Below the pieces are notes generated by a model that worked only from the letters and a program-made list of their open reading frames with translations, made no database searches and was not told the origin of the DNA. Of a stretch of 64,000 nucleotides of DNA, positions 50,841-59,321 are shown piece by piece; positions within the stretch are counted from its first letter, which is position 1, and each line of letters starts with the position of its first letter. Source of the DNA: Escherichia virus TH38; sequence record MT446410.1; one strand, written 5' to 3'. A program made the position numbers and the translations under genes.

Positions 50841-52685
50841 TTAGTGTGTATGCATCCAGTTAAGTCCAATCTGACAATCAGATGCCAGAGGACATTCCAT
50901 GTTCAGATACTCGCCAGCTTTCTTAACACAAAGCTCAGTGTGCTCTTTGAGTTTCTGTACATCATTACGGTTTACTGAGAATTGACCTTCATCGTGCATA
51001 TCAATTACCTTAGCACAACGAACCTTATCTTTCTCAATCCACTTGTTAAGGAACATCATAGCATATTTCATAACAACAGCACCAGCACATTGCAGGAGTG
51101 TGTTAAGGGCTTTATGAACCATAACCTTACCAGTGGCATCCCGTCTCATTGTAATCTTACGACCATCAACTCCAATCAAGTATCCTTGAGCAGCTTTCTC
51201 TGTCATACGATCAATGAGGATTGCAATACATGGGTTCTCTGCTAAGAAACGTGCTCGCATCACTGAACCTTCGTCAGCCCCACCACCTACAATTGAACCA
51301 AGCTTAGCATCGCCAGCACCGTAGTTGAATGCATAGATAAATGTCTTAGCGTTGTCACGAGTAGGAAGACCAGCAAGTTTCTGGTTGTGGGAGTGGATAT
51401 CACCTTCAAGGAGAATATCACGATACATAATAGCAGAAGCTAAACCACGTTCTGCCAGAGCTTTCTTAGCTGGGTTGTTCTCTTCAATTGCTTCAGCAAG
51501 CATATCCCTACACTCTTTAATGAGGTAGTGAGCGAGCATACGAAGTTCCAGTCCAGAACCATCATACCCTAAGAATACTTCTTTACCAGCGGGTATGTAA
51601 TATTTGTAAGCGCCTACAGGTTTGTCTTTCTTCCCCGGCTTACCTTTCTCGTAAATTACGTTAGTACCTTTTCGTATATAACAACCATCAGGAACAACGT
51701 TAGTAATAACGAAAGGACGAGAGTGATCACTGTCTGAGTTATAGTCAGACTCAAACAAACTGCGACACTCGTGACCAAACAGACCACGGGAGGGAATATT
51801 AACCACGATACGATGTTTGAATCGAAAAGTCGGCGTAGCGCAGCTGTTAGCTTCTGCCGAAAGTTTACCATCTTCGCGTTCCTTTGCTATGAGTCCACTG
51901 ATAAGACCTAGCCTGTGAGCCGCCACAACGCGTCTCTTAAGCAAACTTCCGACACTCCCTAGCTCACCCCCTAACCCTTCTTCAAGAGTCTCCTCGAGGT
52001 TTGTAGGAGCTGTAGGCCACTTGTTTGATGTGGCTAGTGCTTTCTTAATCTCATCAAACGTTACAGGATTACGGCGATTAGGGTTTAATCCCAAACCAAA
52101 TACGTAAGCCTTCATATAATTCTTAGTTTTAAACCTGAAATGCTTTTCTAAGAACTTCTTAATATCAGCGTCAACCATCTCGGCTGTCTGCTTCTGCTTA
52201 GCATTGCCTCGCATCCAAGCAGTATACCATGCTTGGTATGTTCCATACTTTCTCATATCTTTCTTAATTTCGAAAGTATTCCAAGGCTTCTTAGATACGT
52301 TAAACTCTGGAGGAAGAAAGCCCTCATCCATAAGAGCTTCTTTAACTCGTGCATCTTTCGATGGGTCAAAGTCTACGTATTCGACACAGGTGAAAGCTCC
52401 ACCAATATCTTCTCTCTTCAGCCCAACCCTATCACAATAGGATTGAGGCCACTTCTGTAAAGCTCCAGACTTCTTAAATGGCTTCATATAAGTAGAGCCA
52501 TCTAATCTCATCTTAGGTAAGAGAGGAATCAGTTCTTTGTCAATATTAACAATAATCTCTTTAAGGAGGTGAACATACCACCGAGCATTTCTTCGGTTGA
52601 AACTCACTCCGTGCTTCGCTTGCTTAGAGATTATATCAGCGACAGTCATCTCTGTCAAAAATGGGAGAGCGTCCGGGTTGCTCAC
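50841..52685 (-). CDS. DNA polymerase, family A polymerase domain only
   Basis: Motif A GYDGSGLELRMLAH, motif B KTFIYAFNYGAG, motif C MHDEGQ; no exonuclease motifs. Confidence 0.7.
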   Translation of the reverse strand: MSNPDALPFLTEMTVADIISKQAKHGVSFNRRNARWYVHLLKEIIVNIDKELIPLLPKMRLDGSTYMKPFKKSGALQKWPQSYCDRVGLKREDIGGAFTCVEYVDFDPSKDARVKEALMDEGFLPPEFNVSKKPWNTFEIKKDMRKYGTYQAWYTAWMRGNAKQKQTAEMVDADIKKFLEKHFRFKTKNYMKAYVFGLGLNPNRRNPVTFDEIKKALATSNKWPTAPTNLEETLEEGLGGELGSVGSLLKRRVVAAHRLGLISGLIAKEREDGKLSAEANSCATPTFRFKHRIVVNIPSRGLFGHECRSLFESDYNSDSDHSRPFVITNVVPDGCYIRKGTNVIYEKGKPGKKDKPVGAYKYYIPAGKEVFLGYDGSGLELRMLAHYLIKECRDMLAEAIEENNPAKKALAERGLASAIMYRDILLEGDIHSHNQKLAGLPTRDNAKTFIYAFNYGAGDAKLGSIVGGGADEGSVMRARFLAENPCIAILIDRMTEKAAQGYLIGVDGRKITMRRDATGKVMVHKALNTLLQCAGAVVMKYAMMFLNKWIEKDKVRCAKVIDMHDEGQFSVNRNDVQKLKEHTELCVKKAGEYLNMECPLASDCQIGLNWMHTH

Positions 52686-52701
52686 TTTATACTCCTTTAA
52701 A

Positions 52702-53124
52702 TTATTGGTAAAGTAAATCTGTAAATGCTTGGTTATCTTCTATCACATCTAACACGGTAGCTTCATAACTGTAAGCCCTAACCGCCCCGTTAACAACTAT
52801 CCGAGGAGTAGGTGGAGGTGGTGCATGATTAGCCCTAGCTTCACGAGGTTGCTCTCGTACTAAATGAGCCACAACCCTTTGGTTAGCGACTTCTTCTCTT
52901 TCTCGGATAGCTCTCTGGATATAAGCCAACTTCATACCCCAAGCTTCTTCAAACTCTTGAGGGTGCTTATCACTGATAACTACATACTGACGTTCAGAGA
53001 TACCAGATCGAATTTCTGATAAAAGTTCATGGAACAAGTCCAGTTCATGTTCAGTGAGATTCATTTCAATATCATCCCACTTTAGAACTAGGAAACGGTT
53101 TTGGTGTCTAGCTGGTAATGGCAT
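52702..53124 (-). CDS. Hypothetical protein (140 aa)
   Basis: ORF. Confidence 0.4.
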   Translation of the reverse strand: MPLPARHQNRFLVLKWDDIEMNLTEHELDLFHELLSEIRSGISERQYVVISDKHPQEFEEAWGMKLAYIQRAIREREEVANQRVVAHLVREQPREARANHAPPPPTPRIVVNGAVRAYSYEATVLDVIEDNQAFTDLLYQ

Positions 53125-53127
53125 AAC

Positions 53128-53412
53128 TCAACCTCTTGGGAATGGCATCAAAAATTCCACAGCAGATTTAATTTCATTATTGATTCTTGAATCACGATAA
53201 GAGATAAACTTACCTTTGCTATCACGTAACATCACATTAGTTCTGGCTGTTTTGTGAGGGAGTAATGTGACACTAGTTGGAATAGTATCAATCCCTACAG
53301 CGTATTTGTCAATAGTCTTACTTTCAGCCAACAGATAAGACCAAGTACGCGGTTTCTGCTCCGGGCGGTTAGGGTATGTGTCCCGAATTTGAACCATAGC
53401 TAACTTATTCAT
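53128..53412 (-). CDS. Small protein, tandem paralog 2 of 2 (TARTNV.LR...GKFISY...PFP.G family)
   Basis: Shared motifs with the 53414-53668 ORF. Confidence 0.5.
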   Translation of the reverse strand: MNKLAMVQIRDTYPNRPEQKPRTWSYLLAESKTIDKYAVGIDTIPTSVTLLPHKTARTNVMLRDSKGKFISYRDSRINNEIKSAVEFLMPFPRG

Positions 53413-53413
53413 A

Positions 53414-53668
53414 TTAAACTCCTTTAGGGAATGGGATGAGATTTTCTACTGCAACACGGAAAGATTTTTCTACGTTCTTATTCTTATAAGAGATAAATTT
53501 TCCATCAGCTCCGCGAAGGAGTACGTTAGTGCGAGCTGTATTTGGGTTTTGTTGAATCATAGAACGAATGATGTTCTCTGAACCTCTATGCTTATTGGTG
53601 AATTTCCAACTGATAGTTTTACCGGTACGAGTTACATCAATAATATTTACAATTTTTACAATAGACAT
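53414..53668 (-). CDS. Small protein, tandem paralog 1 of 2
   Basis: Shared motifs with the 53128-53412 ORF. Confidence 0.5.
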   Translation of the reverse strand: MSIVKIVNIIDVTRTGKTISWKFTNKHRGSENIIRSMIQQNPNTARTNVLLRGADGKFISYKNKNVEKSFRVAVENLIPFPKGV

Positions 53669-53701
53669 ATTTATTACCTAAGAAATTTAATTTGGTTTAT
53701 A

Positions 53702-53732
53702 TAAAAGAAAAGGCCACCCATTTGGGTAGCCT
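53702..53732 (-). terminator. Rho-independent terminator (minus strand)
   Basis: ggctacccaaatgggtggcc plus T-rich tail on the minus strand. Confidence 0.5.
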
Positions 53733-53736
53733 CATA

Positions 53737-54054
53737 TTACGATGAGCTTAAAGCTCCTTTGCGTGCTCCAGCTGCTTTTCCAGCTCGATCACCACTTTTG
53801 CCGCCGTTTGAACGGTTTGAGCTGACTGATTCAACACGTAAGTTGCTTGACGCATTAGAACCTCCAGACTTGACAGCTCGTTTGTGTCCAACGTCTTTAC
53901 CTCTGACAGCAGCTTTTCCATCGCGCTTTTCAACGATGCGACGTGCACGGTGGCGCTGAGCATCTCCGCTCTTGCTCCCAACGCCTGTCTCACCACGGGC
54001 AATTGCGGTACGTCTTTCTTGTGCATAATCTCTCTTTCCTACATGATCTGCCAT
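53737..54054 (-). CDS. Basic Gly/Lys/Arg-rich protein (KGG-repeat-like); an alternative frame, 53748-54026, is also open
   Basis: AAGGAG RBS 7 nt before the ATG at 54054. Confidence 0.4.
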   Translation of the reverse strand: MADHVGKRDYAQERRTAIARGETGVGSKSGDAQRHRARRIVEKRDGKAAVRGKDVGHKRAVKSGGSNASSNLRVESVSSNRSNGGKSGDRAGKAAGARKGALSSS

Positions 54055-54090
54055 TTAAAACTCCTTAATATATCAGTGTACACTAAGGAG

Positions 54091-54099
54091 TATACATTA
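54091..54099 (-). promoter_or_regulatory. TAATGTATA motif (minus strand) between PhoH stop and the next gene
   Basis: About 40 nt upstream of the 54054 start. Confidence 0.4.
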
Positions 54100-54110
54100 T
54101 AAGTTACTGT

Positions 54111-54848
54111 TTAAGCTTTCTTTTCCATTGCTTTAACAATCGCCTTACAGAAACCAGAACGAACAATATCATCTGATTCACCATCTACAATCTCAGCAAA
54201 CTCATACAGATCATGTTCATCAATAAAGTTAGTAGCCCAAGTAAGACCACTCTCACGACCACGCATATCATGCTGGTTAGTATCACCCATGCAGAACAGC
54301 TGAGAGGTTTCTCCCAATCGAGTCATGATCGAGAAGGCTTCATCTTTAGTGGTGTTCTGGAATTCATCAACAATAACAATAGCATCATTGAAAGAACGAC
54401 CACGGAGATATTCCAGAGGTACGAACTCAATGTTACTATTACCGAGCTGGCATTCATAGAACCCCTTACCATATCGCTGAGTAATAACATCAATTATAGG
54501 CATCAGGTAAGGTTCAAACTTCTCACGCATTCCTCCCGGAAGTAACCCAAGAGAATTGCCCATGCCAACTGAAGGGCGACTCAGAATGATCTTCTGAATC
54601 TTACCGCTCTTCAGTGCATCAATAACTGTGGAAGTGATTACAAAGGTCTTACCACAGCCCGCAGGAGCGTCTGTGAACACAACTTGTTTAGTCTTGATAG
54701 CATTGAGTAGCTCAGACTGAAACTGGTTCTGAGGGACTACAGGCTTTGCTAAAACCACCTCTTCATACTCTCGCTTACCCTTACGAGTAACAAGTGCTTC
54801 TCGACGAAGGTCTTTCCGTGATTCTTTCCGTGATTGACGACGACTCAT
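54111..54848 (-). CDS. phoH: PhoH-like ATPase
   Basis: Walker A DAPAGCGKTF; PhoH-like LPGG...PY...P..D pattern. Confidence 0.7.
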   Translation of the reverse strand: MSRRQSRKESRKDLRREALVTRKGKREYEEVVLAKPVVPQNQFQSELLNAIKTKQVVFTDAPAGCGKTFVITSTVIDALKSGKIQKIILSRPSVGMGNSLGLLPGGMREKFEPYLMPIIDVITQRYGKGFYECQLGNSNIEFVPLEYLRGRSFNDAIVIVDEFQNTTKDEAFSIMTRLGETSQLFCMGDTNQHDMRGRESGLTWATNFIDEHDLYEFAEIVDGESDDIVRSGFCKAIVKAMEKKA

Positions 54849-57747: not shown

Positions 57748-58359
57748 TTAGTAAGACACATCACCACTTGAATGGGACATGTTGCTCTTGACGAAGTAGC
57801 AATACTTGCCAAGACCTTCATTAATTTCTTGAAGCATACTCTGATCGACAGGGTAGGTGGCTAAATCACCATCAAACTCATCCATCTTCTCAATAATACA
57901 CATCAAGGTCATGCACATATCAGAGAGCATACCGTCCATGTCTAGATCAGCATTACCCTCTGAGAACCAAGCATGGGAGAGATAATTAGCTGCTGTAGCA
58001 TCCACTTTAACGCAGTGGTAACGCATACGTTCAGCAATACGATCTCCTACCTGTCGTGCGTAATCTTCCAGCTCATCAAACATACCATGAACACCCTGAA
58101 ATCCTGCACCAGAGACGTTCCAGTGGTAGTTTTTAGCTTTGATATGCAATAGTTCCATGTTAGCTTGTAAGCAGCTCAGGATGTGTTCTAGGCTGTTTCC
58201 ACTAATCATACCTTGCATTGTTTCAAGGCGAGAGATTGATAGGTCGGACCGGTCTAACATGCTATAACTATCACGACCAATCTCAGGTAAATCAAAAACA
58301 TTCTTATGCATTTGGGTTTTCTCCATCAAGTTCAACTGAGTTAGCAACGTTACGTGCAA
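57748..58359 (-). CDS. Dps-like ferritin (DNA-binding ferritin-like protein)
   Basis: NYHWNVSGAGFQGVHGMFDEL matches the Dps ferroxidase-site signature. Confidence 0.55.
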   Translation of the reverse strand: MHVTLLTQLNLMEKTQMHKNVFDLPEIGRDSYSMLDRSDLSISRLETMQGMISGNSLEHILSCLQANMELLHIKAKNYHWNVSGAGFQGVHGMFDELEDYARQVGDRIAERMRYHCVKVDATAANYLSHAWFSEGNADLDMDGMLSDMCMTLMCIIEKMDEFDGDLATYPVDQSMLQEINEGLGKYCYFVKSNMSHSSGDVSY

Positions 58360-58705: not shown

Positions 58706-58915
58706 TCAGTAGTAAATTACTTTAGACATAAAAGAACCAGTGTTAGGGTCTTCATACCAGCGATGTATGTCAGCGCTTTTTACTATTGTGCCCAGAGTCT
58801 TCAACTGTTTCTTAGCAATACGAGCCTCTTTGCGAGTGTCAAACAATTTGATGTTATCTTTTCTCATGTGTTGCTCAAGATCCCAAACAACATGAATAGC
58901 CCACATCTTTTTCAT
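58706..58915 (-). CDS. Small basic protein, tandem paralog 3 of 3 (C-terminal ...KVIYY)
   Basis: Shares the TR..AR..KK ... SKV.YY pattern with its two neighbours. Confidence 0.5.
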   Translation of the reverse strand: MKKMWAIHVVWDLEQHMRKDNIKLFDTRKEARIAKKQLKTLGTIVKSADIHRWYEDPNTGSFMSKVIYY

Positions 58916-59124
58916 TAGTAATGTACCTTTCCGCTGATATAAACACGACCAGAAGAATACTCCTTGGCCTTATGAATACTGATGCTCTTAGTTAAGTCTA
59001 CATTGAACATAGACTTTTTAAAATCTCGAGCCTGTTGACGAGTGGGTAGTGCAGTCATAGTCATACCACCTGATGCCCACTTAATCTTTGCTAACCAAAA
59101 TTGTCTCATAGTGATCGGTCTCAT
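58915..59124 (-). CDS. Small basic protein, tandem paralog 2 of 3 (C-terminal ...KVHY)
   Basis: 1-nt start/stop overlaps with neighbours. Confidence 0.5.
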   Translation of the reverse strand: MRPITMRQFWLAKIKWASGGMTMTALPTRQQARDFKKSMFNVDLTKSISIHKAKEYSSGRVYISGKVHY

Positions 59125-59321
59125 TAATAATAAACCTTACTGTTAACACAAAAAGCACCTTCACTATTCACGATAGCTTTTCCTAGTGTAACCTTATTAA
59201 GTCTAAAAGTAGATTTGTATTGATTTTTGACCCTACGTGCGTGCTCTCGAGTCTTAACAAAATCTACAGCTACTAACTCTCCAGTCGTGTTATCATGTAC
59301 ACGAACAATCCACTTTTTCAT
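59124..59321 (-). CDS. Small basic protein, tandem paralog 1 of 3 (C-terminal ...KVYY)
   Basis: As above. Confidence 0.5.
   Translation of the reverse strand: MKKWIVRVHDNTTGELVAVDFVKTREHARRVKNQYKSTFRLNKVTLGKAIVNSEGAFCVNSKVYY

Follow-up and report, generated by a model that had tools for sequence, protein, structure and literature searches.

In T7-like podophages, small class II proteins encoded in the replication cluster (gp5.5, gp5.7, gp5.9, and gp4.5) interact with the host, and their targets are known. The described counterparts of the genes considered here are those of phage phiEco32, whose annotation runs phi32_60, 58, 57, 56, 55, 54, and 53. Two of these, gp57 and gp56, are already catalogued: GenBank has listed them as hypothetical proteins from the time of the phiEco32 sequence onward, they fall into one PHROG family, and they appear in a published homologue table. 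In that table the homologue sets of phi32_54, 56, and 57 are confined to the phiEco32 subgroup, and homologues of phi32_58 also occur in phages 7-11 and GAP52 (Table S2, PMC8948821). No paper in the literature gives a function for phiEco32 gp56 or gp57. Here we analyze the corresponding pair, paralogues A and B, in a stretch of 64,000 nucleotides (nt) from Escherichia virus TH38 (MT446410.1), hereafter the window, in which they lie on the minus strand at 53128-53668. The phiEco32 genes are the same genes in the same order and position and are orthologues of A and B, with no difference of substance.

Paralogue A (53414-53668, minus strand) encodes 84 amino acids (aa), starts with ATG, is the orthologue of phiEco32 gp57 (SU10_054), and is the first gene past a GC-rich hairpin. 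Paralogue B (53128-53412, minus strand) encodes 94 aa, also starts with ATG, and is the orthologue of phiEco32 gp56 (SU10_053). The two genes are co-directional, a gap of 1 nt separates the stop codon of A from the start codon of B, and a strong Shine-Dalgarno sequence precedes each. Compared with its syntenic counterpart phi32_57, A has 67% identity; for B the values are 91% against phi32_56 and 98% against SU10_053, and the flanking proteins are 100% identical to those of phiEco32. The 52-aa open reading frame (ORF) gp55, which lies between gp56 and gp54 in phiEco32, Bas90, and SGF2, is missing from the window.

The homology between A and B extends over their full length, since both match the phrog_6814 hidden Markov model (HMM) end to end (A, E = 7.3e-39, residues 1-84 against positions 1-86 of 86; B, E = 7.2e-37, residues 1-94 against positions 1-85 of 86) and can be aligned throughout in family alignments at ~36% identity. 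It is strongest in the C-terminal 40 residues, where BLASTP finds 22 of 40 positions identical (55%, E = 1e-15) and where the TARTNV, GKFISY, and PFP blocks are the same in both proteins. Against four close relatives, the ratio of nonsynonymous to synonymous divergence (dN/dS) of B is 0.07 to 0.17 in three and 0.23 in the fourth; for A it is 0.28 to 0.35 over the whole gene and 0.03 to 0.13 in the C-terminal half. These ratios indicate that both genes are under purifying selection. A motif scan of the 64-kb window found no third family member in addition to A and B, ORFs of 37 to 48 aa on the plus strand within the A/B interval have no support, and no Rfam family was matched in 52500-54300. 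A and B are real protein-coding genes and diverged, old paralogues of one small family. An earlier sequence-only reading, made from the letters and ORF translations, had described two adjacent ORFs of 84 and 94 aa with shared motif blocks as a duplicated small-protein family of unknown function in the replication block. Its coordinates are exact and its description holds up on each point: the blocks are identical, both proteins belong over their full length to a PHROG family of unknown function, and the pair lies upstream of the DNA polymerase A gene.

All 34 diverse family members that were compared match phrog_6814, and only one of them gave another PHROG match below E = 0.01 (phrog_38107, E = 0.006). 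Word-indexed searches with A and B matched only proteins of 62 to 94 aa, nearly all of 81 to 94 aa; all are unnamed or labelled 'hypothetical', and where their contigs are long these are phage-sized (~70 to 80 kb). A profile search added members on uncultured contigs of 56 to 100 kb, and the family as a whole consists of stand-alone proteins of 77 to 107 aa. An exhaustive HMM search of 1.84 billion representatives gave 30 matches, 27 of them stand-alone proteins of 79 to 103 aa, and revealed no fusion partner for the family. The three long matches (572, 1106, and 1465 aa, each with 5 to 7 matching stretches) were considered as domain fusions and rejected as repeat/kinesin-motif artefacts that match through repeated 'GK-F-SY'-like strings ('GKEFISYRDSKL', 'ARGxDGKLIH', and 'RDKSGKF'). 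Searches by tblastn with A and with two distant members returned the same 98 E. coli/Shigella Kuravirus-like records as cultured carriers, and outside these the family is known from uncultured relatives. On the evidence of these searches, only Kuravirus-like phages and uncultured relatives of these carry the family. Over the 1.6 kb that surrounds the pair, identity is 91 to 96% to the top-listed records and at least 80% in all 98 matches; the top relatives are Escherichia/Shigella podophages that belong to the phiEco32 group (Kuravirus, Gordonclarkvirinae), among them YF01, MN03, Bas90, SU10, NJ01, and SGF2.

The family signature comprises a D in strand 1, the block T-A-R-T-N-V-x-[LIF]-[RK]-x3-G-[KR]-F-[IV]-S-[YF], a helix with A-[VM]-x-x-L, and P-F-P near the end. 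Over 34 sequences with a mean identity of 35%, the T, G, S, F, and P are invariant, and the motif is kept while overall identity drops to ~35% and the isoelectric point (pI) spans 4.6 to 10.8. AlphaFold2 (AF2) models built from the family alignment are confident for A (predicted local distance difference test (pLDDT) 83.3, predicted template-modelling score (pTM) 0.72) and for B (pLDDT 84.5, pTM 0.74). Both models have the topology beta1-beta2-alpha1-beta3-beta4-alpha2 in a single domain of 85 to 95 aa, and the motif corresponds to the entire second beta-beta-alpha unit, including the PFP segment. This conserved C-terminal unit occupies codons 44-83 of A (53420-53539, minus strand; TARTNVLLRGADGKFISY...AVENLIPFPKG) and codons 55-94 of B (53131-53250, minus strand; TARTNVMLRDSKGKFISY...AVEFLMPFPRG); that of A is 88 to 98% identical in close relatives and 55 to 63% identical in distant ones. 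A conserved cluster of basic and hydroxyl or amide residues (R, R/K, K/R, T, T, N, S, and Y) lies on and around the beta-hairpin.

Profile searches and structure prediction, which the sequence-only reading had proposed as checks, place the pair in phrog_6814 and in no other described family. Neither A nor B has a meaningful match in Pfam, NCBIfam, or PADLOC, and the 34 family members have none in Pfam, where a single member matched DUF5487 at E = 0.002; in PADLOC, A gave only a sub-threshold AbiEi match (E = 0.014) and B gave none. PDB chains were matched neither by sequence nor by profile, the best profile being GH18 (E = 0.066 over 21 residues). No PDB entry is a significant structural neighbour of the AF2 models of A and B, which gives no hint of an enzyme, and no signal peptide or enzyme motif was found in either protein. 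Several more specific assignments were rejected. The 'GxxGK' string is not a P-loop, as it is without GK[ST] and its conserved form is G-[KR]-F. LxPFP was considered as a disordered docking peptide, similar to a single-strand-binding protein (SSB) tail or a clamp-binding peptide, and the block is modelled with high confidence (pLDDT 88 to 90) and beta-bridged to the sheet, with only the last 3 to 4 residues less confident. An OB-fold SSB was rejected because no SSB/gp2.5 profile matches and the predicted order combines one sheet and two helices and does not make an OB barrel.

A known structural or housekeeping family, against which the sequence-only reading had staked its claim, is essentially refuted by the domain searches. 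Orthologues of A are labelled 'autotransporter adhesin' in several GenBank records (EC.W2-6, CHD5UKE1, XT32, and pEC-N1203-2Af.1). The protein has no corresponding Pfam or NCBIfam match and is an 84-aa, predicted single small alpha/beta domain; the label is wrong and looks like an annotation-pipeline artefact that is propagating. Comparison with the ILEI/PANDER (FAM3) or GG-type domain (PDB 2yoq and 7ecq; POMGnT1 stem 5ggf) likewise did not place A or B in that family.

The position of the family is conserved far beyond the isolates. The order of genes on the minus strand of the window is the PhoH-like gene (54111-54848), a 105-aa gene (gp58-like), A, B, a 140-aa gene (gp54-like), and DNA polymerase A (50841-52685). 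In five distant uncultured lineages the gp58-like gene (104 to 105 aa) is followed, with or without a small ORF in between, by a single family member and then by one to five variable ORFs and DNA_pol_A; the polymerase of these lineages is 72 to 81% identical to that of the window and the family member ~40 to 50%. A sixth lineage (L015/L016) has the same gp58-like gene, optional ORF, and family member, followed by a 615-aa ORF downstream. The gene order also holds in all Kuravirus isolates examined, and in all of them the first slot is occupied by A. The second slot contains a phiEco32-type B (91 to 94 aa), a KBNP1711-type gene (92 aa, 37% identical to B), or an ECBP2-type gene (85 to 89 aa, 39%).

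Copy number varies, with at least one copy kept in all 98 cultured carriers and a single copy in the distant uncultured lineages. By annotation, LAMP lacks gp56 and gp55 and has A only, and Bas93, Bas94, and EP335, with one tblastn match each, are probably single-copy as well. An obligate A-B heterodimer is unlikely, because A works without B and because the alleles of the two genes vary independently of each other. The single-copy uncultured lineages separate the A and B clades in a neighbour-joining tree, which indicates that the split is old; a tree of ~85 residues fits either an ancient duplication in situ or a second allele gained by recombination.

Within A, conservation is sharply divided. 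A hypervariable cassette at 53540-53635 (minus strand) covers codons 12-43, corresponding to the beta1-beta2 loop, beta2, and helix 1. When the nucleotide sequence of the window is compared with phiEco32, NJ01, LAMP, and a relative from IMG/VR, sliding identity falls from flanks of at least 0.9 to 0.47-0.68 between ~53640 and 53530 and then recovers abruptly. In these four genomes the gp58-like and polymerase proteins, and PhoH where it can be aligned, are 98 to 100% identical to those of the window; A is 67 to 75% identical overall, 47 to 58% in its N-terminal half and 88 to 98% in its C-terminal half. Among 18 A-type sequences, residues 12-43 have a mean pairwise identity of 30% (minimum 6%) and residues 44-83 a mean of 91%, and at least eight classes of cassette allele can be distinguished, in genomes with flanks of at least 95% identity. 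The window carries another allele of the cassette than phiEco32 does.

Cassette dN/dS is 0.2 to 0.9, and synonymous divergence (dS) in the cassette is also high, which points to the exchange of old alleles rather than recent positive selection. Moderate divergence is also seen in B and in the gp54-like gene, with dS of 0.4 to 0.9 across A, B, and gp54 versus 0.03 to 0.23 in gp58 and the polymerase gene. The gp54-like gene has a short hypervariable block of its own in its C-terminal part, at ~52750-52860, with a nucleotide identity of 0.42 to 0.65 to phiEco32 and the IMG/VR relative. In YF01 (L020 1449-1943) and SGF2 (L021 1609-2100) the gp58-like gene and A are separated by exactly one inserted gene, which encodes a free-standing HNH homing endonuclease, and one is annotated in the region also in EC.W2-6, EC.W14-3, EC.W8-1, and YW01. 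The equivalent site of the window, the intergenic interval 53669-53736, is without a homing endonuclease. Endonuclease-driven gene conversion or escape of its target site is a plausible non-adaptive contributor to the cassette.

The expression signals suggest a coupling of the pair to the polymerase gene. The sole recognizable promoter upstream of the pair is the element TAATGTATA at 54091-54099 (minus strand), an exact match to the phage-sigma (phi32_gp36-type) promoter, a type that consists of a single element. It is the equivalent of phiEco32 P58, one of six gp36 promoters (Table S3, PMC8948821), and the pair probably belongs to a P58-type middle transcription unit. A GC-rich hairpin followed by a T-run, similar to an intrinsic terminator, occupies 53710-53733 (minus strand) between the gp58-like gene and A; in a terminator scan its stem has 10 pairs, 6 of them GC. 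A begins 42 nt past this hairpin. Since the hairpin lies between the P58-type promoter and A, the pair and the polymerase are probably expressed by read-through. A hairpin is present upstream of the family gene in 10 of the 10 relatives compared, the most distant included, with differing stem sequences, and it is the structure, not the sequence, that is kept. It may be read as a site of regulated read-through into the polymerase operon or as a stabilizer of the 3' end of the gp58 message. The genes of the A-B-gp54-like series are spaced by 1 nt and 3 nt. The sequence reads as a Shine-Dalgarno for B (AAAGGAG, 53419-53425, minus strand) inside the last codons (K-G-V) of A, and as one for the gp54-like gene (AAGAGG, 53132-53137, minus strand) inside the last codons (P-R-G) of B. 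The embedded Shine-Dalgarno of the next gene explains why K/R-G follows PFP in Kuravirus and not elsewhere.

Taken together, we favor, with a probability of about 0.4, the reading that A and B are non-enzymatic binding proteins acting on a conserved partner in DNA metabolism. The second beta-beta-alpha unit (TARTNV-x-[LF][RK]-x3-G[KR]F[IV]S[YF]...A[VM]xxLxPFP) would be the working face, gripping a partner that is unchanged across all carrier phages. The likeliest partner would be a component of DNA metabolism, be it the phage replisome, the product of a neighbouring gene, or a conserved host replication/repair factor; such a partner is favored because of the fixed position of the family, its apparent coupling to the polymerase operon, and its core-like retention. 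The first beta-beta-alpha unit, hypervariable in A, would be a swappable surface that makes or avoids a second, variable contact, and A and B may be sub-functionalized versions of which the second copy is dispensable.

Several observations weigh against this reading. The 7-11-like, GAP52-like, Bruynoghevirus, and other phages have the gp58-like gene and, according to PMC9965538, the split polymerase, and lack the family; the module can therefore do without it, which speaks against a strict replisome role. Shared gene order in related phages is weak evidence of function. The high dS of the cassette, together with the endonuclease site of YF01 and SGF2, allows its variability to be non-adaptive, and the three conserved basic residues fit nucleic-acid binding equally well. 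The A cassette was not seen to co-vary with either B or the variable block of gp54, NJ01 for instance combining a different A cassette with a near-identical gp54-like gene, and this offers no support for a neighbour as the variable partner. A more elaborate version, which we consider unlikely, is a bipartite effector of a new type with a fold new to the PDB, in which the invariant unit would act on a universally conserved DNA-metabolism target (host replication/repair or the phage split polymerase), and in which a specificity cassette swapped by recombination, along with the second copy in Kuravirus, would adapt it to strain-specific host variation or immunity.

Other explanations compete with this reading. 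One is a counter-defence or host-takeover inhibitor that blocks a host immunity or stress protein, with the cassette and the copy number reflecting an arms race in which alleles and paralogues are matched to target variants or escape recognition. The hypervariable cassette and the changes in copy number are circumstantially in its favor, but the core-like distribution and probable middle timing weaken it, and we regard it as doubtful. A direct role in binding single-stranded DNA, structured DNA, or RNA, as an accessory of replication or recombination whose conserved beta-hairpin contacts phosphates or bases, seems to us no less doubtful. Both copies in the window have a strongly basic character (pI of 10.8 and 10.0, net charges of +10 and +7), the beta-hairpin bears conserved residues of basic, hydroxyl, or aromatic type, the gene is probably expressed together with the DNA polymerase, and no single-strand-binding protein is named among the YF01 replication genes in PMC9965538. 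However, charge varies within the family, with pI down to 4.6, many members net negative, and C-terminal halves ranging from 0 to +6, and a conserved overall charge was accordingly rejected as a signature of nucleic-acid binding or DNA mimicry. Pfam shows no OB, KH, RRM, or HTH signature, the predicted fold is not OB, and the 203-aa 'DNA binding protein' ORF of some records is a separate gene.

An explanation that addresses only the cassette, and is compatible with any functional model, is that its variability is a by-product of traffic of the HNH homing endonuclease through homing, co-conversion, and target-site escape. The endonuclease gene directly upstream of A in YF01 and SGF2, those annotated in the region in four other phages, and the raised dS of A, B, and gp54, a sign of old alleles brought in from elsewhere and not of selection on point mutations, are consistent with it. 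Yet the hairpin region beside the insertion point is well conserved (0.88 to 0.93), divergence begins ~30 nt inside A and ends abruptly near codon 43, the same A allele (99%) occurs with the endonuclease in YF01 and without it in the window, and gp54, ~700 nt away, contains another short variable block. We find this explanation of the cassette improbable.

The neighbours of the pair have features of their own. The gp58-like gene (53737-54054, minus strand) encodes a 105-aa basic protein with an HNH-like motif, matches phrog_4590 (E = 8e-41), and is the upstream neighbour in all lineages. Its product is very basic and rich in glycine and serine, contains the motif DVGH-x6-SGGSN-x3-NLR-x7-NRS-x-GGK, and is 70 to 82% identical in distant relatives in which the TARTNV member is ~40% identical. 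The gene is present in 253 phage records, including Aeromonas, Proteus, Salmonella, Cronobacter, and Vibrio phages, and adjoins the polymerase exonuclease subunit in Pseudomonas Bruynoghevirus; GenBank names it 'hypothetical', 'Cas8 protein', 'cytidyltransferase', or 'HNH endonuclease'. An overlapping 92-aa ORF within it (53748-54026, minus strand) was rejected as a by-product of amino-acid composition. This second frame is open in every relative (96 to 102 codons), and in synonymous-codon shuffles that preserve the gp58 protein it was equally open in 8 to 87% of trials. Downstream, the gp54-like gene (52702-53124, minus strand; 140 aa; phrog_11427, E = 7e-82) is followed by DNA polymerase A. 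Its N-terminal ~70 aa (MPLPxR..LVLKWDD...YVVISDKHP..EE.WGM) are conserved in distant relatives, where the protein has 237 to 275 aa with long low-complexity C-terminal extensions.

Three further observations concern the surrounding replication block. A perfect sigma-70 promoter with an extended -10 element (TTGACA-17-TATAAT, with TG ahead of the -10) lies at 52630-52658 (minus strand), within the first 56 nt of the DNA polymerase ORF and in the same direction. It is the sole perfect match in 64 kb, with none in 100 shuffles, and is kept in phiEco32, LAMP, NJ01, Bas90, and the IMG/VR relative; ECBP2 and KBNP1711 have no perfect match. This site might serve origin-activating transcription, act as an RNA polymerase sink, or start an internal transcript. 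Three abutting ORFs of 65 to 69 aa (58706-58915, 58915-59124, and 59124-59321, minus strand) share 23 to 26% mutual identity (E = 1e-3 and 1e-4) and a common W...TR..AR..K...Y pattern, and are probably the other tandem paralogue set implied by the title of the sequence-only reading, which had called A and B the second. The 203-aa ORF at 57748-58359 (minus strand), named 'DNA binding protein' in Bas90, matches Pfam Ferritin-like above the gathering threshold (E = 3e-7), which suggests a Dps/ferritin-like protein in the replication block.

The immediate value of this analysis is a tidier annotation of a gene pair that had been catalogued and left unstudied. It unites both genes in one family, corrects the 'autotransporter adhesin' label, and defines the limits of the family; it also adds a confident orphan fold, deep conservation of position, and a bipartite pattern of conservation in which the cassette has sharp borders. 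Phage-therapy work on E. coli makes use of Kuravirus phages, the BASEL collection includes them, and the majority of their middle genes are unknown. If the family does act on a conserved replication/repair target, or has a role that decides between strains, it could help in engineering host range and in probing that target. As the family is small, well defined, and confidently modelled, it is a cheap candidate for experiments.

Comparison with known phage proteins yields resemblances of setting and size. The phi29/VMY22 protein p56 (an inhibitor of Ung), T7 Gp2 (an inhibitor of RNA polymerase), and T4 Dmd (an antitoxin) gave scores below significance against the window proteins, with 2 to 12% identity, and p56 and Gp2 are acidic, unlike A and B, whose pI is at least 10. 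The class II proteins of T7-like phages are likewise small, non-enzymatic, and encoded and expressed among the replication genes of lytic podophages. They have no sequence similarity or significant structural similarity to A or B, and the analogy is one of genomic setting only. Unlike those proteins, the family of A and B is core-like within its clade and combines an invariant half with a variable half that resembles a cassette.

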